64,000 nucleotides of DNA. Origin: an uncultured Porphyromonadaceae bacterium (GTDB lineage Bacteria; Bacteroidota; Bacteroidia; Bacteroidales; Muribaculaceae). Position 1 is the stretch's first letter; every line of letters begins with the position of its first letter. Below, piece by piece: positions 3,701 through 21,966 of the stretch. The stretch covers positions 5,416-69,415 of the forward strand of contig URII01000004.1 of assembly GCA_900547825.1 (NCBI GenBank), written 5' to 3'. Both the position numbers and the translations under genes were made by a program. Under the pieces are notes generated by a model that was not told the origin of the DNA, searched no databases, and saw only the letters and a list, made by a program, of their open reading frames with translations.

Positions 3701-3854
3701 TACCGGCGCCGACGGCTCCCGGGTGGATGTATTCAATGCCACAGGTGCTCTTGTATTCTCATGCTCGGGGCGCAACTCCCTTACTGTTACGGTAAATGCC
3801 GGTGTATATATGGTGAAAGTAAACGGCACGACACATAAAGTACTCGTGCGTTGA
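705..3854 (+). CDS. Large secreted multidomain protein with choice-of-anchor J / cleaved-adhesin-like modules and a T9SS C-terminal sorting tail
   Basis: 1049-aa ORF with signal peptide MRTTLLIATLAACSLTATA. Two modules carry the DDWLITP / NDWLITP signature. Also Fn3-like repeats, a MAM-like module and a CARDB-like segment (HDLAVTGIVTP...). The C-terminal beta tail ...GVYMVKVNGTTHKVLVR is typical of T9SS type A CTDs. Clear paralogy to the genes at 42103-51127. Confidence 0.85.
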   Translation: MRTTLLIATLAACSLTATAEIPHAKSHTLHAEGMTFATLVNPGLLLKHGDRIKETSTPAGVTKAVKHEAGAPFTVPWSNDFSSPDISAFTIIDGDNDERIWEYDSENECMKSGSTKSGVIDKDDWLITPGLLLEKGKVYTISMDLWRRSARYEERAEVWLGSAPTAAGMTRVLLERTNLQEDSPKEYTFEVTVQETGAYYIGIHAVSEPLRWTMYADNIKVDCTSSESAPAAIADFAPVADIHGAAKVDITFTAPSTTYDNGQLTSISKIEISRDGTVIKTFENPAPGTALTYTDDPVTEGMRVYTVTASNGAGQSQPVSEQVYVGFTTPKAPAKATITEDPEMLGMVKVAWEPVTEDIYGKIYPEGTVTYFVADATSIVQRDITGTSIDVHAVPEGQDFAYYGVFTRTGRYGQSAGYANTGMIPVGEPYAIPFYESAPGADLSFHWGKKNLSEESDWGTLDLESSGGSIDAFDGDGGYIGSLCKKSGDRTRLMSGKVDISSAKNPYLRFAYWAWEENDKPETIIVMAREAGDPEEFATIATFYTTAPKGKGGWQRVFIPLDAYKGKTIQIAFETVMGNHFYTMFDAITLYNVHDHDLAVTGIVTPSRVKTAETHEVTAEIENRGVNTENDYTIDLLLNGQPVKTLSGTPISLGEYRTFTFTNELGVNNPKECEYKVRVNVDGDGNLDDNESETKVTFLTLPNYPTVPGLNGSVDESTGNVLLTWETPDTSRPKPEPTFDSFEDYESFAIDNVGDWTMHDLDGEENYVIEDNEFPHNGEAFSFIVLDTRRMQTPYQANSGVKAMVSFPSTKNENNDWLITPMLWDGEQEITFFAKSHIGLYGLESFDVLYSTAGTSPYEFTRIGGEKEVPTTWTRYTYTVPEGTKYFAVRCTSKNMLAFMVDDFEFLSASSPLPDLTIKGYNVYRDMIRLNTELIAGNTFTDNQPVNRQHTYHVSAVYNAGESQLSDPCDPFLSGIDTIGPDTAGTAVKVLGMKGAITVTGADGSRVDVFNATGALVFSCSGRNSLTVTVNAGVYMVKVNGTTHKVLVR

Positions 3855-3880
3855 CCGCCGACAACATAACCCTCAATACT

Positions 3881-3911
3881 GCCGCCCGGATTCTCAAATT
3901 ATCCGGGCGGC
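3881..3911 (+). terminator. Hairpin terminator after the 705-3854 gene
   Basis: 11-bp stem GCCGCCCGGAT / ATCCGGGCGGC with a 9-nt loop, 27 nt after the stop. Confidence 0.6.
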
Positions 3912-3947
3912 AAACATATATAATTTGGGATAGCCCGGATTTCTTCG

Positions 3948-3972: not shown

Positions 3973-4965
3973 ATGGACACCACCACAGAGAAACGCCCCA
4001 TGGTGAGCGTGGTAATGATCACCTACAATCAGGCCAAGGAGATAGCCACCGCCATAAAAGGCGTGGTGAGACAACGCGCGGATTTTGACATTGAGCTAAT
4101 AATATCGGATGACGCATCCACTGACACCACCTATTCCATAGCCGAAGAGTGGCAGCGCCGCTACCCCCACATCATAAAACTTTACCGCAATGCCTCCAAC
4201 ATAGGGCTACAGGCCAACTATATCAAGGCTTTCAGCTACTGCCGGGGACGTTACATGGCACTCTGCGACGGCGATGATTACTGGATCTGCCGACGCAAGC
4301 TCGCCATGCAGGTGGGCTATATGGAACAGCACCCTGAATGTGCGGTGACATTCCACCGTATGATAAATTTCTATGAAAGCGACCGGACCATGAGCCTGAG
4401 CAACGGCGGTCAGTCCGTGCTTACCGACATACGGGATCTGAGCCGCGCCAATTTCATAACCAACGCATCAGTGCTCTACCGCAAGGATGCTGTGGATCTG
4501 ACCGGGCTGCCGGCTTGGATCAGGGACATACGGCTGCTCGACTATGCCATGCACATGCTCTATGCCGCCAACGGCACAATACGTTATTTCCGACGTCCCA
4601 TGGGTGTGTACCGCATAAGCGGAGCCGGAGGCACATGGAGCAGGGCCGAACGCTACACCCAGCTCAACATGGCCCTGAAAGTGCGCGAGCACCTCATGAA
4701 ACACTTCGCCCACCGGCCCGATATAACCGAAGGACTCCGTAATGCCTCGGTCAACATACTGCTACACATGGCCGTGGCTGCCGAAGGTGATACCGAGCGG
4801 GAGGATTATGTACGAAACCGGTTGAAAAAATATCCAGGCTACTCCGATGACGCGGCCATCGACGCTGCCGTGGCGCGGATTGCCTCGGCACCCCCGCGCC
4901 GGAAACCGTTTCTGTCGCGCCTTCGCGCCGCCATCTCCCGCCTCATCCCCCTACCGCGCCCATAG
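3973..4965 (+). CDS. Family 2 glycosyltransferase
   Basis: The N-terminus VSVVMITYNQAKEI...LIISDDASTDTT...CDGDDYW is the classic GT2 (GT-A, DxD) signature. Confidence 0.85.
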   Translation: MDTTTEKRPMVSVVMITYNQAKEIATAIKGVVRQRADFDIELIISDDASTDTTYSIAEEWQRRYPHIIKLYRNASNIGLQANYIKAFSYCRGRYMALCDGDDYWICRRKLAMQVGYMEQHPECAVTFHRMINFYESDRTMSLSNGGQSVLTDIRDLSRANFITNASVLYRKDAVDLTGLPAWIRDIRLLDYAMHMLYAANGTIRYFRRPMGVYRISGAGGTWSRAERYTQLNMALKVREHLMKHFAHRPDITEGLRNASVNILLHMAVAAEGDTEREDYVRNRLKKYPGYSDDAAIDAAVARIASAPPRRKPFLSRLRAAISRLIPLPRP

Positions 4966-14148: not shown

Positions 14149-15210
14149 CTACTCTTTTCCTACTGATGGTATTTCCCACCAGCCGTTGCGGCGCCCGTTA
14201 CGGCGAATGATAATGCCGCGCGCCGCGAGAGAGGAGGTGATTCGTTTTACAGTGGCTGTTGATTTCTTTATTCCTTTTGCAAGTTCCATTTGGGTGATTT
14301 TGGAATTGGCTGTTATCAACCGCAGAACCGACAGTTCTTCCAAAGTACAGTTCAAAGTATCAAATTGAGACTTTGAATCATCAGTAGTGATACTTTGAAT
14401 ATTCGAATCACCGGCACTTACAAGCATTGAGCGGTTGCTTAGTTCATTTGACTCACCAAGAATCACGTTACGGAGGAATAGTTCAACAAACTCGGTTGTA
14501 GGCTGAATATTCAGTCCTTTATAGGATGCACGGACAAGAGCGTTGCGGAAATACCATGAATGACGCTTGAACATCTCGTTTGAAGCTTGTACGCCCATAG
14601 AGCGCAGATACTTTATCAAGAAGACAGCCGTAGTGCGTGTGTTCCCCTCCCTGAAAGGGTGTATTTGCCAAAGGTCGGCAACAAAGCCGGAAATATGCCG
14701 TATTATTTCATTGATTTGCAGCCCGGTATAATCAAATCCCTTTTCCTTGTCAAGATCATACTCAATCGCCTCCCGAAGATTGAAAGCCGGTTGATAACTG
14801 ACGGACGCATCGCCTCCCAATACCCATTCTTTCTTCGAGATATCCACGTCGCGGATCTTGCCCGCAAACTTGAATATCCCCTCAAATATACGTTTATGAA
14901 TCGTAGTGAGTCCCACCACGGAGAAAGCAAACGAGGGTTCATTGATGATTTTCGCTATATTGCTGCTTGCCACGTCGGCCTCTTCATCAACGGCATCATG
15001 AGCCGATTTTGACTGATAATACTGTCTGATAAGAGCCCGCGCCTCATCAATGCTCACATCGCCTTCGATATGGCGGCGTGCGGTTTCGACAAGATAAGGC
15101 GACACCTTCAACCCATCGACATCCTGCAAGCCAATAGCCGTCTGCCAAGCGTCAGCCTTCTCCCGCTGCCCCAGTTCACCATGCACTATATACTCATCAA
15201 ATTCGCTCAT
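14149..15210 (-). CDS. Fic family protein with C-terminal winged-helix domain (non-canonical Fic motif)
   Basis: 353 aa. The Fic motif region reads IHPFREGNTRTTA. The C-terminus SVLRLITANSKITQMELAKGIKKSTATVKRITSSLAARGIIIRRNGRRNGWWEI is wHTH-like. Confidence 0.85.
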   Translation of the reverse strand: MSEFDEYIVHGELGQREKADAWQTAIGLQDVDGLKVSPYLVETARRHIEGDVSIDEARALIRQYYQSKSAHDAVDEEADVASSNIAKIINEPSFAFSVVGLTTIHKRIFEGIFKFAGKIRDVDISKKEWVLGGDASVSYQPAFNLREAIEYDLDKEKGFDYTGLQINEIIRHISGFVADLWQIHPFREGNTRTTAVFLIKYLRSMGVQASNEMFKRHSWYFRNALVRASYKGLNIQPTTEFVELFLRNVILGESNELSNRSMLVSAGDSNIQSITTDDSKSQFDTLNCTLEELSVLRLITANSKITQMELAKGIKKSTATVKRITSSLAARGIIIRRNGRRNGWWEIPSVGKE

Positions 15211-15226
15211 ATTCCTTTTGGTATAT

Positions 15227-15967
15227 TTATTTGCAATTCACTTTCCAATAGCCTGATTTATTGCTTCCGACGCGCTGCACCAATTCTTGTTCTTTCAGTG
15301 AACTGATAATTTTTCTGACAGCACGGTCCGTAATTCCAATTTCTTTGGCTATTGCGGATGCTGTGAGGTTAGGTCTTTTCAGCAATAGGTCAAGAACATT
15401 AGATTCTGATTTATTAGGAACTTTGTGAGGAACTTTATTAGGAACTTTTTCCGTTTCCTTATGCTTTTCAAGTGTGTCACGGATTTCTGTCAGCATAAAG
15501 TCAATGAACGGTCCCGATTGTCCGGCGGCAGTGGAAACGGCAATTGCATCATAGTATCGTTGTTGATTGGAGAAAACCATATTTTCCACCGGTAGATGTT
15601 CAAAAACGGGATTAAGCCTACCCAATATAAGTGATTGCCATAATCTCCCGGTACGTCCGTTGCCATCGCTGAACGGATGGATAAAGCTGTAAAGTTCATA
15701 CGCCTTGATTGCATTCCTCACCTCCTGAATCTGACGTATCGGGGCAACTACATTCTTGCCGTTGATAATATCGGCTACCTCATCTTCCGACAACGTATTG
15801 CCCTCAATGGCAAGAGAACTATGGATAGTCTTGATACGATTCGCCTTGCGCAGACGCAATCCGTCCTCATTTTCAAGAGCGATGGCATACCGCTCAAGCA
15901 GAGCCGAAATCTCAGCAATGAGATTGATTGCCAGTGGTGAAACTGTAAATGGAGGTGCTTGCATCAT
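15227..15967 (-). CDS. Short Fic family protein with C-terminal wHTH, probably carrying an internal deletion
   Basis: 246 aa. The inhibitory-helix motif SLAIEG (aa 51-56) and the canonical HPFSDGNGRTGR (from aa 97) are only about 40 aa apart. The C-terminal wHTH reads LTASAIAKEIGITDRAVRKIISSLKEQELVQRVGSNKSGYWKV. Confidence 0.75.
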   Translation of the reverse strand: MMQAPPFTVSPLAINLIAEISALLERYAIALENEDGLRLRKANRIKTIHSSLAIEGNTLSEDEVADIINGKNVVAPIRQIQEVRNAIKAYELYSFIHPFSDGNGRTGRLWQSLILGRLNPVFEHLPVENMVFSNQQRYYDAIAVSTAAGQSGPFIDFMLTEIRDTLEKHKETEKVPNKVPHKVPNKSESNVLDLLLKRPNLTASAIAKEIGITDRAVRKIISSLKEQELVQRVGSNKSGYWKVNCK

Positions 15968-15969
15968 AA

Positions 15970-16119
15970 CTAAGGGTTAGTATAAATGTGATGGTTGTCG
16001 ATATTGAGAAACGCACACGCCGAATGCATACCGTCTTTCAACTCGTCGGTAATCTTCTTCAGTTCCAAAGTCCGCGATTCGTCCTCCGCAATCAATGCCT
16101 TTATATCATCAATAGTCAT
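15970..16119 (-). pseudogene. 49-codon stub of an AlbA_2-type (Schlafen/AlbA_2 DNA-binding, ATP-binding-protein family) gene
   Basis: My own translation is MTIDDIKALIAEDESRTLELKKITDELKDGMHSACAFLNIDNHHIYTNP*. It matches the usual N-terminus of the about 400-500-aa Bacteroides AlbA_2/HATPase_c_4 proteins and then stops. Below the 60-aa cut-off of the ORF track. Confidence 0.5.
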
Positions 16120-17798
16120 CCTGCTAATTCTTTGATAAAGTCGTTAATTATTTCAGGAGATTTAAGTTCATATCGACTCATCAAGAAAACCGAAAATGAA
16201 ATATCTTGACAATGTAAAAGTTCCGTAAAAGTATAACTATACCCAGACAAACGTTTTTGACAATAAGCATGGTAATTTTTAATCTCAGAAAAAATATCGA
16301 TCATACCACTCTTGATTAAGTCTGACGCTAATATAAATGTATCCATATCCAATACAGTAATGGGATGAGTAATGGTATTCAATTCATCCTTTATAGCCTC
16401 ATTTAGAAGTCGATTGAATCCATCTGAAGAAAAATTGTAATCATCACACAAAAGTATTGGGTATACTTCAAGATTTTCTAAATTGATTTCGTCCCAAAGA
16501 AATTGATGTTTCTCTATTCTATCGCAATTTCTAAGAAGTTGGCCCGTGCCATGATTTCCAATTAAACTCTTATAAACTACCTTCGCGCACTCGGATGGAT
16601 TTAATATAGCCTCTTGGCTAATCATCATTCCTTTACATTCAAATAATAAAATTTTATTGTCTTTTCTAAAATATCCATCTGGAGGCGAATTTGTCAGGCT
16701 TTCAAAAGAGCATTTCCCATATGAGGGCAACAGTTTATACATTTGCTTCGCATACTTGATTCGGTTATGACAATCTGTATCTGTCAATAAAAGTCCCTCC
16801 TTACAGAATGTATATTCCAACAAACCAGTAAATAGAAAATTCTGAATAAATTCAGTTGTGAATGCTACCTGAAAATTTTTAAATACACCTGTCTCCGAAT
16901 TTATTTTAGAGAGCGCAAAACGAAAGTGTAAGTAAAACAAGTTACTTACAAACACATTCGATATCACCCCATAATGATAATTGCGTAACTTTACAAAAGG
17001 CTTATTCTTAAATGCAGTATAATCAACATTCTCTTTTAGTGAGACTATTTCCTCCAATGTTAGTGATATTCTATCTAAAAAATCCGTCATATATCCTTTG
17101 GAGTGAAACCTAAAAATGACATTCGTTTTGCGCGGCTCAAAAGGTATATCTTTAGTAAGATAATCAATTATATTAATATAATCCGCAAAAGATGAGAGAT
17201 TATGTGTGTTTAGAAAGGTATCACGCAATTTTCGCCACTTGTCAGAAGATGTATTGAAAAAACGATTAAGCATGAGTGCTCTATAAAATGTTGAGTATAA
17301 GCTTATCCTTGGGTCTATTTCATATTTTTTTGACCTGATATGTTTGTAAAATTTATCACCCGACTTATCTTTGAATCTTGGATTATTTTTTAATAATTCA
17401 CTATTTATCTTCAGAATAGCAAGTAACAACGCAAAGTTAATCTCAAAGATATTTCTTGGACTTTTGAAATCTTTTGGAGAAATGCTGTATGCGTTTTTAA
17501 GGAGTTCTAAACCTGTTTGAACATTAGTCAATTCAAGTTCATATTCTGCATTATGAATTGGTCTGTTCAATAGCTGTTCTATAATATCTGGTGGTAATGT
17601 TGTTTCAAAACCAAGATTATGGATAGTTTCATCAGCAGGAATATCCTTTGTCGTATTCGATAATAGCAGTCCAATACGAATAGCATGCTCACGTGGTACA
17701 TACTTCAGTAAATCTTTAGCATCCATTTCTAATGGTTTATCGCCAAAGACATCATCGAAGTTTAAGAGTAGTTTATCAACGATTTCCATACAAATCAA
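16116..17798 (-). CDS. Uncharacterised 560-aa protein with a C-terminal PD-(D/E)xK nuclease-like motif, in an operon with the R-M-S enzyme
   Basis: Long AT-rich ORF 12 nt downstream of 17811-21668 on the same strand. Residues about 372-420 read PPDGYFRKDNKILLFECKG...GTGQLLRN (D374, E387, K389, Q420 by my count). I recognise no family for the first about 365 aa. An alternative start is the ATG at 17789. Confidence 0.8.
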   Translation of the reverse strand: MICMEIVDKLLLNFDDVFGDKPLEMDAKDLLKYVPREHAIRIGLLLSNTTKDIPADETIHNLGFETTLPPDIIEQLLNRPIHNAEYELELTNVQTGLELLKNAYSISPKDFKSPRNIFEINFALLLAILKINSELLKNNPRFKDKSGDKFYKHIRSKKYEIDPRISLYSTFYRALMLNRFFNTSSDKWRKLRDTFLNTHNLSSFADYINIIDYLTKDIPFEPRKTNVIFRFHSKGYMTDFLDRISLTLEEIVSLKENVDYTAFKNKPFVKLRNYHYGVISNVFVSNLFYLHFRFALSKINSETGVFKNFQVAFTTEFIQNFLFTGLLEYTFCKEGLLLTDTDCHNRIKYAKQMYKLLPSYGKCSFESLTNSPPDGYFRKDNKILLFECKGMMISQEAILNPSECAKVVYKSLIGNHGTGQLLRNCDRIEKHQFLWDEINLENLEVYPILLCDDYNFSSDGFNRLLNEAIKDELNTITHPITVLDMDTFILASDLIKSGMIDIFSEIKNYHAYCQKRLSGYSYTFTELLHCQDISFSVFLMSRYELKSPEIINDFIKELAG

Positions 17799-17810
17799 GA
17801 CTAAACATAT

Positions 17811-20800
17811 CTAATTAAGATATTTATCAAGAATGGCTTGTTTCTTAGACGGAATCTGTGCCTGTATACCACGAAGCCTTGCTATTTCAGTATCAATAGC
17901 TATAAACTCGGATGCGATTCTTCGCTGTTCCTCTATATCTTTTGGTAAGACTATCTCAAATTTTTCAATTGTATCTTTACGACCACGAGGCATCTTCATA
18001 CCGGAAACATCCTGCATGATATAATCAAAAAACTCGTTTCTACGGAGGGCGTAATATACGAATGCTGAATCAACCTCTTGGGGATTGAGATTGTGTAACA
18101 CCAAAACATCAGGGTTGCATCCGCCCTCTCTATCTGCAAGCCAAAGTTTCTTAAGATAGGGTCTAATATTTGACAATAATATATCCCCCGGATAATAGGC
18201 TATCACGTTTGTGATTTCAGGCAAACCATTATACGGTCTTACACCTGCACATTCTGGAAGCATGTTATCCGTACTCACAAATGAGTCCGCTGCAATTTGA
18301 GAATATGGAATTCTCTCATTGGCGAAGGGCATTATTCCTGCCAAAGATATGTTATTCCCATTAATGTTGTTCTGCAATGAAAGTATCCTTGCGTTCAATT
18401 CTTGTATTTCATCTTCAATTATACGGTATTCCCTATCTAATTGAGAACATTCTTGCACAATTTTATTCTGGATTGCCGTGTTTGGTTTAGGGATGAAATA
18501 GTTTTTCAGATATTTAAAATGACGTTCATATTTCCCGTGATTAATTATATCAAGGGAACTTAGGTAAAAATACAAATATTTGAGCGAAATAGAAGAATCT
18601 GAAATTTTTATAAGTTGGGTTCCATCAGCTCCTCTTACAAAAGGCTCATCCAAATATTTAAAGGTGCATGAGTGATCGCCGAATACAATCAATGGCACAT
18701 CTGTGATTGGATTATCATCATAATATCCTGACACCACGATACCTTTTTCTTGGGTAATGACCGGATACCTGCCTGTTTCTTGAATCTTATTCGTGTCGAT
18801 TTTTGTGGTTTCACCATTAATTCCATCTAAAATATCGCCTAATTTTACGATTGGATACTTTGTTTTCGGTCTGAATGAGAAAGCAAAGTTGGTTTTGAAT
18901 TCTTTCTTAAACCCTACGGACTTGAAGTCAAGCATATCCACTAAATTCCCAAAAGTGCAATACTCTCCGCAATCATCAGGGATGATATAATCCTCCCCTA
19001 TAAAATTACAGCGAATCAGTGAGTTGATTTTATTTGAATCAGCGAGGTTGTCTGGGTTAAATAGAGGTGTTACAATACCATTGATGCCTCGAATCTGTTG
19101 CATCGTGTCATCGTCAGCCTCATTATCGGAATTACCATTCTCTGTTGAATTTGTGGATGTGCCAATATGAAGGTATTTAATTCCCTCATTCCCTTTAGTA
19201 TTGCTCCATTCATATCCGAGGAATTTTTTCCCTTCAGATGTACCTGATGGCATATTTACGATAAGAACCGGACAAGGAGCATTATATGCCAGCATGAAAA
19301 AGAATAATTTATCTTGTTCGATGGATTTTACAAAAGAATGAAATGTCTCACGTCTGATTTTATCCTGTTCTTCTGCCCTCTTGTTTTTGAATGCCTTTGA
19401 TTTCTCCTGTGATTTGAAACGGGTGCGGATTTTCTTAGCTGCTTCAAGTACGCCCGACATTGCATTTCTACCGTTACCGAAGAAAGCACGATGGTACGAC
19501 TTAAACATTTCAGTAGACTGGAGAGAGTCCTCTATATAACCTTTTAAGAAGTGTTTGTAGTCATCCATATTGTATCCCATATGACAGCAATAGGCCGCGA
19601 GTAAATGGGAATCTTTATAAATAGAATCGGTTTCAGCACGTCCGCTGAACCAATCTTCCATTCGGCACCAATAATGCTCGGATTCGGATGTATTGGTTTC
19701 CTTGCGACGAAGGAACAGCACAACTGTATTCGTACTCGTTTTCCCAAATGTGCCTTTATCAAACTTCACCAAAGATATCAAATCAAACGATTTAAGAATC
19801 ACCTCTCGTGCACGAGTATAAATTCCATCCTTCGTGAGAACAGATACTGGCAATACAATAGCTGCCACACCGCCAGATTTTAATAACTGCGCAGCCCGCT
19901 CAATAAAGAAAGTTTCGATGGCATTGTTCTTGTCAACATTTATGTCATCGTTGAAAATTGAATAACGTTTGCGTTGTTTCTCCGATAACGTTTCTAAGAA
20001 TCCTGAAACCGAATATGGCGGATTCGCAACAAGAACATTGAACGTTCCATCTCTCAGTTCATTAATTTTTTCAAGTGCATCCGCATATATGATGTTTGTA
20101 TCATCGTGGCCATACATGAAAGCAGATACTTTGGAAACTTTTGATAGACGGTATTCCTTCTCGATACCATATATGTTGGCATAGAAATCTTTCAGTCTAT
20201 TATTTCCGTGGTATTTCCCCACAAATTCTTTGATACGAAAAGCATATTCAGTAAGGAAATGTCCTGCGCCACAAGCATAATCTATGGCTAATGGCGGTTC
20301 CTGATTGTTCTTGATGATGTTTTCAAGAGGCAAGGAAGAAACAATGAAACGGACAATAGGCATCGGGGTGAAGAATTGCCCTTCGCTTTGTTTTACTCCC
20401 TTGTTAAGAAAACCCTCAAACAGGTCTCCAAGAAGCTGGTTTTGGTAGTTCTCGCTTGTACGAAGGCGTATGTCTTGGAGCATTTTTACAATCTTTCGCA
20501 ATACAATGGCATTCTGCTTAAACAACCTTTCGTTATGCACACTGATAAAAGCAAAATCGTTGTCAGAAAAGAACTTCAACGCGCGGAAATATTCCTTGAT
20601 TGTCTTTTTAGTAGCATCAAGGTCATTTACCACCCATCGGAATGCTTTATCAATTTCGCTATTCTCAATATATGTTACATCCTCTCCAAGGAATTTCTTC
20701 ATACCGTCACGATAGAGCCTTTGCAAACGATCCTGAAGAGAGAAATCATCATCATAAGAGGTGCCTTTCCAATAGAAATGCAAGTCATTCGGATTGTTGG

Positions 20801-21668
20801 TCTCGTCAACTACTTTAGCTAAAAACAGATTGACAAGTTTATCAAATGCGTTCTCATGGCTACCTACATTGTGTTGACGCAAGATAACGGCAAATTCATT
20901 GTATTTTTTCTTAATTTCCTCGGAGTCAACCTCCCTCAAATCGCTGTTTGCATCGTAAGAATTTTCTCTGACATCAAATTTTTTGTCAAAAGCACCTCGT
21001 GTCAAATAATCATATTCATAGGTGTCTTTCCAAACATTGAAATATTCTCGGTAATCTCCGCCATTTGATGTAACTGAAGAATAACTTATCAAATCTTTAT
21101 CTGAAGATATACGGTCTTCATTATCAGTCATCTTAATTACTCGATAAGAGGACTGAGAACAGCCATTAACAATATCAGCGGTATATAAACATATATACTG
21201 AGCTTGACGATAAGAATTGTAATATCTGAAGAGTTGCCCTCCGTCAAGCAACATTCTTTGCCATTCTTTGCTATATTCATCTCTATCGTCGCCCGTCGTT
21301 TTGCATTCAATCAACATAAATGGGACACCGTCATTGCCCGTTATGAGAATATCACCATAGTAATTCCCATCCTCTCTTCCACCTGGTGTTTTAGGCTCTA
21401 AAACGATATTAGATGGATGGTAGCCAATCTTCAGCAACTGGCAAACACACTCCAATACCACAAAATTTTCATTATCGGAAAAATTTAGGGTAGTAGCTCT
21501 TTCAATTTTAAGTTCTTTTGGATATATGATTTGAAGGGTAGAAAAATCTACGGATATTTGCATGTCGTTTTCAAGAAAACGTCGTGTCATAACATCATTG
21601 ATACTTGTAACATCTCTTGCAAATTCCAATGAATACAACAATTCTCGTAAATTATCCTTCGTAATCAT
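17811..21668 (-). CDS. Single-polypeptide restriction-modification-specificity enzyme (Type IIB/IIG-like: PD-ExK nuclease + gamma-class N6-adenine methyltransferase + two HsdS-type TRDs)
   Basis: 1285 aa. N-terminal GDILITGNDGVPFMLIECK...GGQLFRY (D106, E121, K123). FFTP (432-435), AdoMet motif DYACGAGHF (463-471), catalytic NPPY (549-552). The C-terminal third has two HsdS-like target-recognition domains (YPIVKLGDILDGINGETTKI..., ISLAGIMPFANERIPYSQIA...), each followed by a coiled-coil conserved region. Confidence 0.9.
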   Translation of the reverse strand: MITKDNLRELLYSLEFARDVTSINDVMTRRFLENDMQISVDFSTLQIIYPKELKIERATTLNFSDNENFVVLECVCQLLKIGYHPSNIVLEPKTPGGREDGNYYGDILITGNDGVPFMLIECKTTGDDRDEYSKEWQRMLLDGGQLFRYYNSYRQAQYICLYTADIVNGCSQSSYRVIKMTDNEDRISSDKDLISYSSVTSNGGDYREYFNVWKDTYEYDYLTRGAFDKKFDVRENSYDANSDLREVDSEEIKKKYNEFAVILRQHNVGSHENAFDKLVNLFLAKVVDETNNPNDLHFYWKGTSYDDDFSLQDRLQRLYRDGMKKFLGEDVTYIENSEIDKAFRWVVNDLDATKKTIKEYFRALKFFSDNDFAFISVHNERLFKQNAIVLRKIVKMLQDIRLRTSENYQNQLLGDLFEGFLNKGVKQSEGQFFTPMPIVRFIVSSLPLENIIKNNQEPPLAIDYACGAGHFLTEYAFRIKEFVGKYHGNNRLKDFYANIYGIEKEYRLSKVSKVSAFMYGHDDTNIIYADALEKINELRDGTFNVLVANPPYSVSGFLETLSEKQRKRYSIFNDDINVDKNNAIETFFIERAAQLLKSGGVAAIVLPVSVLTKDGIYTRAREVILKSFDLISLVKFDKGTFGKTSTNTVVLFLRRKETNTSESEHYWCRMEDWFSGRAETDSIYKDSHLLAAYCCHMGYNMDDYKHFLKGYIEDSLQSTEMFKSYHRAFFGNGRNAMSGVLEAAKKIRTRFKSQEKSKAFKNKRAEEQDKIRRETFHSFVKSIEQDKLFFFMLAYNAPCPVLIVNMPSGTSEGKKFLGYEWSNTKGNEGIKYLHIGTSTNSTENGNSDNEADDDTMQQIRGINGIVTPLFNPDNLADSNKINSLIRCNFIGEDYIIPDDCGEYCTFGNLVDMLDFKSVGFKKEFKTNFAFSFRPKTKYPIVKLGDILDGINGETTKIDTNKIQETGRYPVITQEKGIVVSGYYDDNPITDVPLIVFGDHSCTFKYLDEPFVRGADGTQLIKISDSSISLKYLYFYLSSLDIINHGKYERHFKYLKNYFIPKPNTAIQNKIVQECSQLDREYRIIEDEIQELNARILSLQNNINGNNISLAGIMPFANERIPYSQIAADSFVSTDNMLPECAGVRPYNGLPEITNVIAYYPGDILLSNIRPYLKKLWLADREGGCNPDVLVLHNLNPQEVDSAFVYYALRRNEFFDYIMQDVSGMKMPRGRKDTIEKFEIVLPKDIEEQRRIASEFIAIDTEIARLRGIQAQIPSKKQAILDKYLN

Positions 21669-21885
21669 AGTTACAGCCTCAAAAGTGAAAATTCCAATGT
21701 AGCATACGAGGCTGACCTCCTCGAGCTATGCTCGCTTCGCCACTACGAAGAATGCCTTAAGCGACTACGTTGGAGCTTCCAATGTTTTGTTTACGGCTTG
21801 CGCCATTATGTCGTTGTTATATTATTCTTTGCCAAGGCAAAACGCCAAGGCTATGAGGTCATTTCGCATCATGATGCTTAGATTA

Positions 21886-21904
21886 CAAAGTTAATCATTT
21901 CCCG
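21886..21904. repeat. Right copy of the imperfect direct repeat flanking the insert (CAAAGTTAATCATTTCCCG)
   Basis: See 14052-14072. The first 8 nt also form a minus-strand TAACTTTG -7 box about 215 nt upstream of the R-M-S start codon. Confidence 0.5.
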
Positions 21905-21966
21905 TGAAATTTTTGGCCTGCAAACCCTATTTTATGCGTTGATAATCGCGTTATTGGCTTGATTGG

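Follow-up and report, generated by a model that had tools for sequence, protein, structure and literature searches.

Type IIS restriction enzymes such as FokI carry a PD...(D/E)xK nuclease core at the C-terminus, behind a large N-terminal region, and a similar arrangement is found in Shedu (SduA, DUF4263/PF14082), a single protein of defence islands with a variable N-terminus and a C-terminal PD-(D/E)xK nuclease. PrrC and RloC, which join an ABC-ATPase domain bearing a Walker A motif at the N-terminus to an anticodon nuclease at the C-terminus, are effectors that do not belong to restriction-modification (RM) systems themselves; their genes lie within Type I RM loci, stably linked to, and co-expressed with, the RM operons. 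Upx (PDB 9wuf) is a stand-alone PD-(D/E)xK defence protein of 1212 amino acids (aa) with two nuclease domains, in which the nuclease is buttressed and regulated by other domains (PMC13099982). Here we compare these systems with a gene in a 64,000-nucleotide (nt) stretch of DNA, referred to as the window, from an uncultured Muribaculaceae bacterium (contig URII01000004.1). It is a real, intact gene, and we consider it a credible candidate for a new defence gene. It belongs to an unnamed, phylum-wide family that joins a familiar predicted catalytic fold to a novel N-terminal region and occupies an unusually regular operon position, and it has no match to the family profiles of Shedu, Mrr, NucS, RecB-like nucleases or Upx, nor to HsdR_N in Pfam.

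The open reading frame (ORF) occupies positions 16116–17798 on the minus strand and encodes 560 aa when read from a TTG codon. It lies downstream of a gene for a 1285-aa enzyme with restriction, modification and specificity (R-M-S) parts, which is on the same strand and ends at 17811, leaving a 12-nt gap. The TTG start would prepend the residues MIC (17786–17798, minus strand) to a sequence that begins MEIVD in all of the close homologues, and because of this the ATG at 17786 is the more probable start, giving 557 aa and a 24-nt gap. The G+C content is 0.32–0.34 for the ORF and 0.37–0.40 for the RM gene, with 0.45–0.46 for two adjacent Fic genes on one side and 0.49–0.59 for the housekeeping flanks. 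A preliminary description of this DNA had recorded the position, strand and 12-nt spacing of the ORF and an AT-rich composition like that of the RM gene, all of which we confirmed; its proposal that the two genes form one acquired unit is supported by their composition and by a leader-to-ORF frame common to other loci, described below. No terminator-like site was found in the 12-nt gap by a scan for sigma-70 promoters and terminators, a scan that is uninformative for Bacteroidota sequence.

A conserved motif in a large family

Residues 372–389 of the protein read PPDGYFRKDNKILLFECK and include D374, E387 and K389; Q420 follows within GTGQL. The preliminary description had placed this D-x12-E-x-K plus Q arrangement correctly at 16632–16685, and its residues are conserved in 123–126 of 126 distant members of the family. 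A loose pattern, D-x(8–25)-[DE]xK, occurs eight times in the protein and alone is not above chance; we take the motif at 374/387/389 as real because it is conserved across the family, and not from the bare pattern. Among 27 close sequences D374, E387, C388, K389, G417, Q420 and some 30 further positions are invariant. The whole catalytic-type motif, P-P-D374-G-Y-x-R-x(8)-E387-C-K389 (16632–16685, minus strand), is likewise invariant in close homologues and largely kept in distant ones: across the 126 distant representatives, which share about 20–25% identity, P373 is retained in 111, D374 in 123, Y376 in 116, R378 in 114, E387 in all 126, and K389 and Q420 in 125 each. Q420 lies in G-T-G-Q (16539–16550, minus strand) at the start of the helix after the ExK strand. 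A second motif upstream of the core, N257-x-D259-Y-x-x-F-K264-x-x-P267-x-x-K (16989–17030, minus strand), is also conserved in the 126 distant members (D259 in 124, K or R at 264 in 125, P267 in 126). Information content along the protein peaks at residues 251–335 and 366–510 and is lowest at 1–250; that the N-terminal region holds no nameable motif, as first noticed by eye, was borne out by the lack of any match to it in Pfam, NCBIfam, PADLOC or PHROG.

Its earlier designation as an orphan does not hold. A word-seeded search recovered 26 full-length relatives at 31–97% identity, and an exhaustive hidden Markov model (HMM) search of 1.84 billion representatives gave 1049 clusters, defined at 50% identity, at E≤1e-3 and 741 at E≤1e-10. 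Nearly all are of 550–590 aa, and the family HMM aligns over positions 1–547 of the protein. The named members, from Duncaniella, Phocaeicola vulgatus and Muribaculaceae, are all annotated 'hypothetical protein', and we found no description of the family in the literature. Genome matches come from Flavobacterium, Mucilaginibacter, Chryseobacterium, Kaistella, Hymenobacter, Pedobacter and Bacteroides, plus one from Limnohabitans, so that named members and genome matches together are almost all from Bacteroidota. Seven matches were found on Hymenobacter plasmids, none in 50,697 phage genomes searched with tblastn, and one short locus only in a scan of metagenome contigs.

Profile searches do not place the protein in any described group. 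Pfam, PADLOC and NCBIfam gave zero families at E≤1, ten distant members gave sub-threshold noise only against Pfam, and searches of PDB sequences, run with the protein itself and with two profiles, returned nothing relevant. The Mrr_cat, NucS and RecB-like families, raised in the preliminary description as ones to search, are thus not matched by the protein in Pfam or NCBIfam at E≤1, and neither are Cas4-like nucleases; the ten distant members give no match to these families either. Membership of Shedu/DUF4263, which it had offered as a candidate, is refuted by the lack of a PF14082 or PADLOC match and by Foldseek values of E 0.045 or worse at low probability.

Two members are much longer, P0038 at 871 aa and P0040 at 1185 aa. 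We considered that the extra length might be a new fused domain and rejected this, as each carries the family sequence twice; both are tandem fusions in which the second copy also has D...ExK...Q. The fusions hint that the protein may work as a dimer, in keeping with its likeness to the Type IIS nucleases described below. Fragmented or frameshifted family copies, in pieces of 150–300 aa, were seen at five loci (L019, L028, L033, L036 and L061), which suggests frequent gene decay.

An AlphaFold2 model of the full-length protein, built with the family alignment, is confident, with a predicted local distance difference test score (pLDDT) of 89.6 and a predicted template-modelling score (pTM) of 0.89. 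In the model D374 precedes a strand at 375–379, E387-x-K389 ends a strand at 382–389, and helices and then a strand at 444–451 follow; this is the alpha-beta-beta-beta-alpha-beta order of a PD-(D/E)xK core, in which an acidic residue opens strand 2 and (D/E)xK lies on strand 3. A domain-only model of residues 331–505 (16284–16808, minus strand; pLDDT 87.5) yields a predicted five-stranded PD-(D/E)xK nuclease core, and in Foldseek searches of the PDB its best structural matches are Type IIS cleavage domains. Nt.BspD6I comes first (E 4.7e-3, probability 0.99, template-modelling (TM) score 0.37), the R.BspD6I small subunit gives E 0.012 and probability 0.99, and FokI gives E 0.037 and probability 0.72; the BspD6I matches overall span E 4.7e-3 to 0.02 and probabilities of 0.94–0.99, and Shedu, Cdn1 and Can2 rank after these enzymes. 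The full-length model matches almost purely PD-(D/E)xK enzymes in the PDB (BspD6I, Upx, arenavirus cap-snatching endonucleases, Can2, Shedu, McrC, XPF and LmuA), and in BFVD restriction-endonuclease, Mrr-domain and VRR-NUC models appear among mostly uncharacterised proteins; the N-terminal ~330 aa found no match in either database. We conclude from these models that the C-terminal half is a predicted restriction-endonuclease-fold domain, with a shape most like Type IIS cleavage domains and outside any named family. The conserved motif, the strand order and the PD-(D/E)xK-dominated match lists support the suggestion that a second, separate nuclease-like protein is encoded beside the RM enzyme. 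Structure prediction, which had been proposed as a check, gives a confident model and match lists dominated by this fold, but none of the matches reaches E≤1e-3.

The resemblance to each described system is partial. As in Type IIS enzymes, the core is C-terminal, behind a large N-terminal region, in a protein of about 570 aa, but there is no sequence-profile match to FokI or BspD6I, the TM-score is about 0.37, and the N-terminal region does not match their recognition domains. A Type IIS RM system pairs its nuclease with a methyltransferase of matching specificity, and the protein has none; the methyltransferases next to it are parts of complete RM enzymes that differ in type and specificity. 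It shares the single-protein layout of Shedu and its presence in defence islands, but the Foldseek matches to Shedu have E-values of 0.045–0.35 and probabilities of 0.33 or lower. Upx and the protein are both single-protein PD-(D/E)xK systems with a weak and non-significant Foldseek match (E 0.07); unlike Upx, this is a 560-aa protein with one core, and it has no PADLOC match. The motif grammar D...h-h-h-E-C-K...G-x-Q-L is also that of the HsdR-type domain (PF04313/PF13588), and a low-probability hhalign comparison sets D374, E387, K389 and Q420 against D106, E121, K123 and Q145 of the neighbouring R-M-S enzyme; there is no Pfam match, and K and Q are 31 aa apart where that domain has 22 aa. 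The stable linkage of a non-RM gene to RM operons recalls PrrC and RloC, but the protein has no ABC-ATPase or anticodon-nuclease domain, and it is linked to many RM types and to non-RM defence genes.

Genomic contexts of the family

In 9 of the 12 distinct contexts of close homologues, an RM system lies directly upstream of the family gene and is encoded on the same strand; these systems are of Type I, BcgI-like IIB, fused IIB, IIG/IIL or ISP-like architecture. In the window it follows the fused R-M-S gene at 12 nt. Other single enzymes upstream are a 1323-aa ISP-like ResIII+Eco57I protein (locus L004; 26-nt gap), a 1039-aa N6_Mtase+Type_ISP_C protein (L009; 69 nt), which forms a two-gene island with the family gene amid housekeeping genes, and an Eco57I-type enzyme whose gene overlaps it (L040). 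Multigene systems are a PLD-SNF2 protein with an Eco57I/TaqI_C methyltransferase (L007; 67 nt), a Type I hsdM-hsdS-hsdR operon (L008; 22 nt), a 591-aa HSDR_N_2+N6_Mtase protein with a specificity subunit (S) (L038/39; 194 nt), and BcgI-like pairs of a methyltransferase (M) and S, with gaps of 130 nt in L043 and 10 nt in L044 and in L047–L050. The gap between the family gene and the gene upstream is 0–27 nt in eight contexts. The M proteins of L043–L050 carry an N-terminal PD...EVK motif of their own, and we therefore rejected the idea that the family protein is the missing restriction subunit of these M+S loci.

The single-chain R-M-S enzyme of the window (17811–21668, minus strand) is of the Type IIB/IIG kind and matches PADLOC REase_MTase_IIG over residues 1–1285 (E=0). 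Pfam identifies N6_Mtase, Eco57I, Methylase_S twice and, weakly, HSDR_N_2 at residues 80–125, and the chain combines a nuclease of the HSDR_N_2 type at its N-terminus with an N6-adenine methyltransferase of the gamma class and two specificity domains. PF13588 is present in homologues of its first 231 aa; D106, E121, C122 and K123 are invariant among them, and G143, Q145, L146 and Y149 are nearly always kept. The full-length PADLOC match, the D106...E121-C-K123 module and the two specificity domains confirm that the neighbour is a self-sufficient R-M-S enzyme, as had been supposed.

Defence genes other than RM systems also precede the family gene. An AbiLi-type ATPase (PADLOC E 1e-76) lies upstream in L037 and L051, with AbiEii convergent, and in L001 a Fic gene lies upstream with Type I RM, GmrSD and HipA genes nearby. 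In P. vulgatus a relative with 24–29% identity lies 11 nt after AbiD (PADLOC E 4e-61), convergent with a Type ISP enzyme; a distant member lies 11 nt after Tmn (PADLOC E 2e-86). Among RM enzymes, MmeI precedes a further distant member (L057). Neighbours of distant members include AbiEii/DUF6088, HigB, AAA_15/21, nSTAND3-TPR, a DUF4011 helicase, GAP1-N1/EAD1, integrases and tra genes, and defence neighbours across the family further include YhcG, Fic, RhuM and PD-T7-5-like proteins. Conjugative plasmids and an integrative element have family members in their cargo regions. No methyltransferase was found within 10 kb of any of 26 distant genome loci with a local gamma-methyltransferase HMM; because this HMM misses MmeI, as at L057, the count is a lower bound on RM linkage.

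The survey of homologues proposed in the preliminary description thus reveals a strong defence context, with RM systems in the close contexts and AbiLi, AbiD and Tmn elsewhere, and the location beside defence genes is recurrent across several lineages, involving RM systems of at least six architectures, AbiLi, AbiD, Tmn, AbiEii, GmrSD and HipA. Intact copies are also found beside damaged partners: the identical protein P0014 lies behind one intact and one frameshifted M gene, and an intact family copy lies behind decayed Type I fragments.

The integrative element in P. vulgatus (L052–L056, 7150–16198) carries a relaxase, an integrase, the Type ISP RM enzyme, AbiD and the relative of the protein. 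In different samples it is inserted at five different places in the chromosome, with the defence genes at its very end. At a further locus (L035, 8145–12047) PRPP-synthetase-like and NAMPT-like genes bracket a family member, with boundaries overlapping or nearly abutting; upstream of them is the gene for a 1799-aa DUF4011 helicase that also has an MTES_1575 nuclease domain, so that an NAD-salvage pair stands in a defence-like cluster.

The leader and the exchangeable RM module

A conserved leader lies upstream of the RM gene in the window (21682–21906, minus strand), and leaders of 165–225 nt related to it are found ahead of unrelated RM operons in L008 (3792–3953), L043/44 (L043 4564–4731) and L047–L050 (L047 4616–4781) and, weakly, L038/39 (L038 722–862). 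The window copy holds TAACTTTG at 21886–21893. The Bacteroidetes -7 promoter consensus is TAnnTTTG, and TAACTTTG fits this box. Nearer the RM gene is a 17-bp stem, in which about 21763–21781 pairs with 21688–21703, and then a U-run right before the ATG at 21668; the L038 leader retains the stem with a different sequence. The leader matches no Rfam family, and the window copy shows no unusual folding stability (z = -0.83). From these sequence features the leader may be a promoter and attenuator module common to swappable RM cassettes.

Between the Type I locus L008 and the BcgI-like loci L047 and L043, DNA homology is limited to the leader (81–89%) and the target gene, where it is 78% over 1.66 kb and stops at the stop codon; the intervening RM genes are unrelated. 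The homologous blocks are 3789–3947 and 9998–11658 in L008 and 4613–4773 and 7998–9661 in L047. The leader and the target gene thus frame an exchangeable RM module. L007 and L038/39 have 99%-identical flanks, and the block that differs consists of the RM system and the family gene, plus RhuM in L007. The order at this hot spot (L007 3174–12766; L039 4401–9711) is integrase, YhcG, Bro-N, variable block and Asp-Al_Ex. The two assemblies carry different RM systems and family variants that are 39% identical, and 50–84-nt repeats recur intergenically after the integrase, YhcG and Bro-N genes.

On the other side of the gene in the window, a 49-codon remnant of an AlbA_2 (Schlafen-like) gene (15968–16119, minus strand) begins with an ATG that overlaps the target stop codon as ATGA. 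Over the first 42 aa it has 86% identity with the start of the intact 510-aa AlbA_2 protein encoded after the L047 homologue, and it is then truncated. The rest of this small defence islet consists of two genes with Fic and winged helix-turn-helix domains identified by Pfam (246 aa and 353 aa; 14149–15967, minus strand), which are probably outside the unit formed by the RM gene and the ORF. The 353-aa protein matches the PADLOC candidate PDC-S72 (E 3e-114), and the 246-aa protein, with a partial SoFic match, looks like an N-terminally shortened SoFic-like protein. The islet is flanked by a sulfate permease and MutS on one side and by a BT1-family transporter and SpoIID on the other, and no tRNA gene, integrase or terminal repeat was found at its borders.

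Possible roles of the protein

We favour, at about an even chance, the interpretation that the family is a self-contained nuclease-type defence protein that is independent of RM type. The C-terminal restriction-endonuclease-fold domain, with its FokI/BspD6I-like shape, would cleave by way of D374, E387 and K389, and the helical N-terminal ~330 aa would recognise a cue, either unusual or modified DNA in a Type IV-like manner or a phage factor as for Shedu and Upx, and would restrain the nuclease until the cue arrives; the protein would act as a dimer. What the data show are the family, the conserved motif, the similarity of fold, the place in operons and the neighbouring defence genes; nuclease activity, trigger, dimerisation and defence phenotype are the parts that we infer. 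The gene is carried at the promoter-distal end of defence operons, which in this lineage consist of the conserved leader, an exchangeable RM system and the target gene, and we propose that, because of this place, it is expressed and transferred with the RM system and forms a second, independent layer of defence. The protein has no methyltransferase of its own, and it is possible that it is a modification-dependent back-up nuclease, as the preliminary description had also offered. Autonomy is favoured because the N-terminal region and the full length are homologous with or without an RM neighbour, because the partners next to it vary too much to share a single specific contact, because every adjacent RM system has its own nuclease, and because the gene is still intact in places where the RM genes beside it are frameshifted or fragmented.

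Several observations weigh against this interpretation. No sequence profile in Pfam, NCBIfam, PADLOC, PHROGs or PDB sequences ties the protein to any nuclease family. Foldseek gave no match at E≤1e-3 for the full-length model against PDB and BFVD or for the core model against PDB, and the TM-scores reach only about 0.37; in an hhalign comparison with aligned HSDR_N_2-type sequences, D, ExK and Q fall in register with a probability of only 2.2% (pairwise E 0.021), and we do not use this register as evidence of homology. The N-terminal region offers no clue to a ligand, and the genes around some distant members are metabolic ones, for example those for methylmalonyl-CoA mutase and LodA. The regular position after RM genes and the leader-to-ORF frame could also reflect a functional tie to RM that an autonomous protein does not require.

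Such a tie can be pictured in more than one way. The protein could be an RM-linked guard effector that follows the logic of PrrC and EcoprrI, silenced by the upstream defence protein, whether an RM complex, the AbiLi ATPase, AbiD or Tmn, and firing when phage counter-defence disables that protein, and its place as the last gene, directly after another defence gene and most often after RM among close homologues, is what such an arrangement would look like. The conservation of leader and target gene alone around swapped RM modules points the same way, as does its position in L037 and L051, where it replaces the second gene of a two-gene AbiL system behind an AbiLi/AriA-like ATPase. We nevertheless regard this as unlikely: so diverse a set of partners does not suit one specific protein contact, members without an RM neighbour have a homologous N-terminal region, intact copies remain beside decayed RM genes, and Pfam, NCBIfam and PADLOC show no ATPase or anticodon-nuclease similarity. 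A related proposal for gut Bacteroidales, which we hold to be rather less probable still, does away with the specific partner; a partner-agnostic nuclease at the tail of the operon would, with the conserved leader RNA, frame exchangeable RM modules and act as a common back-up executioner, released when an upstream RM system, AbiLi, AbiD or Tmn is blocked by phage counter-defence. Another form of dependence is that of an accessory or second nuclease subunit, which would dock on the methyltransferase-specificity core common to Type I, IIB, IIG and ISP enzymes and help to cut or degrade restricted DNA. The methyltransferases of the adjacent RM systems are all N6-adenine enzymes of the gamma class and of a Type I-related kind, the tight spacing suggests coupled expression, and specificity subunits vary beside an unchanged target protein as a generic subunit would predict. 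However, each adjacent RM system already has a nuclease (HSDR_N_2, PLD, HsdR or the PD..EVK motif), the family is also found after AbiD, Tmn and AbiLi, and most distant members are without a detectable RM neighbour, and we find a subunit role improbable; the narrower proposal made earlier, an accessory subunit of Type IIB/IIG systems, does not accommodate the members that follow Type I, ISP-like, IIL and PLD-SNF2 enzymes, AbiLi, AbiD and Tmn.

The exchange of RM modules raises the question of whether the protein is itself responsible for it, as a nuclease whose cuts in DNA would help the leader-RM-ORF cassette to insert or to be exchanged, in the manner of a free-standing homing endonuclease or a TnsA-like enzyme. 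In the window, L009, L040, L043 and L047, islands of RM genes and ORF sit amid housekeeping genes and have no integrase, tRNA gene or terminal repeats, the homology of L008 and L047 ends exactly at the target stop codon, and the whole block of RM genes and ORF is swapped between the 99%-identical flanks of L007 and L038/39. Ordinary homologous recombination explains block exchange between identical flanks, however, and upstream genes and insertion sites are diverse with no common target site evident; the P. vulgatus and Hymenobacter copies are moreover on elements with their own integrase or transfer genes, and the chance of a mobility role appears slim. That the ORF does not encode a working nuclease or defence protein, but a structural or regulatory protein with a relic motif or a restriction subunit that has decayed, is very improbable. 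The lack of a significant match to any characterised family and the fragmentation of several copies (L019, L028, L033, L036 and L061) would fit decay, but full-length conservation across 1049 clusters, a catalytic triad that is near-invariant at 20–30% overall identity, and a confident and compact predicted fold for the whole chain argue against it.

If the self-contained protein that we favour proves to be active as a defence nuclease, more than 1000 clusters now annotated only as 'hypothetical protein' in Bacteroidota would gain a name and a function, among them those of abundant gut lineages such as Phocaeicola vulgatus, Muribaculaceae and Duncaniella, and its N-terminal ~330 aa would be a new sensing or recognition module on a FokI-like cleavage domain, with possible interest for enzyme engineering. 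Were the partner-agnostic proposal true instead, the family would represent a general guard layer for restriction enzymes in Bacteroidota. The frame of leader, exchangeable RM system and target gene is a testable example of RM specificity swapping in gut bacteria, and it also allows testing of whether the RM systems of these bacteria carry a dedicated second line of defence.

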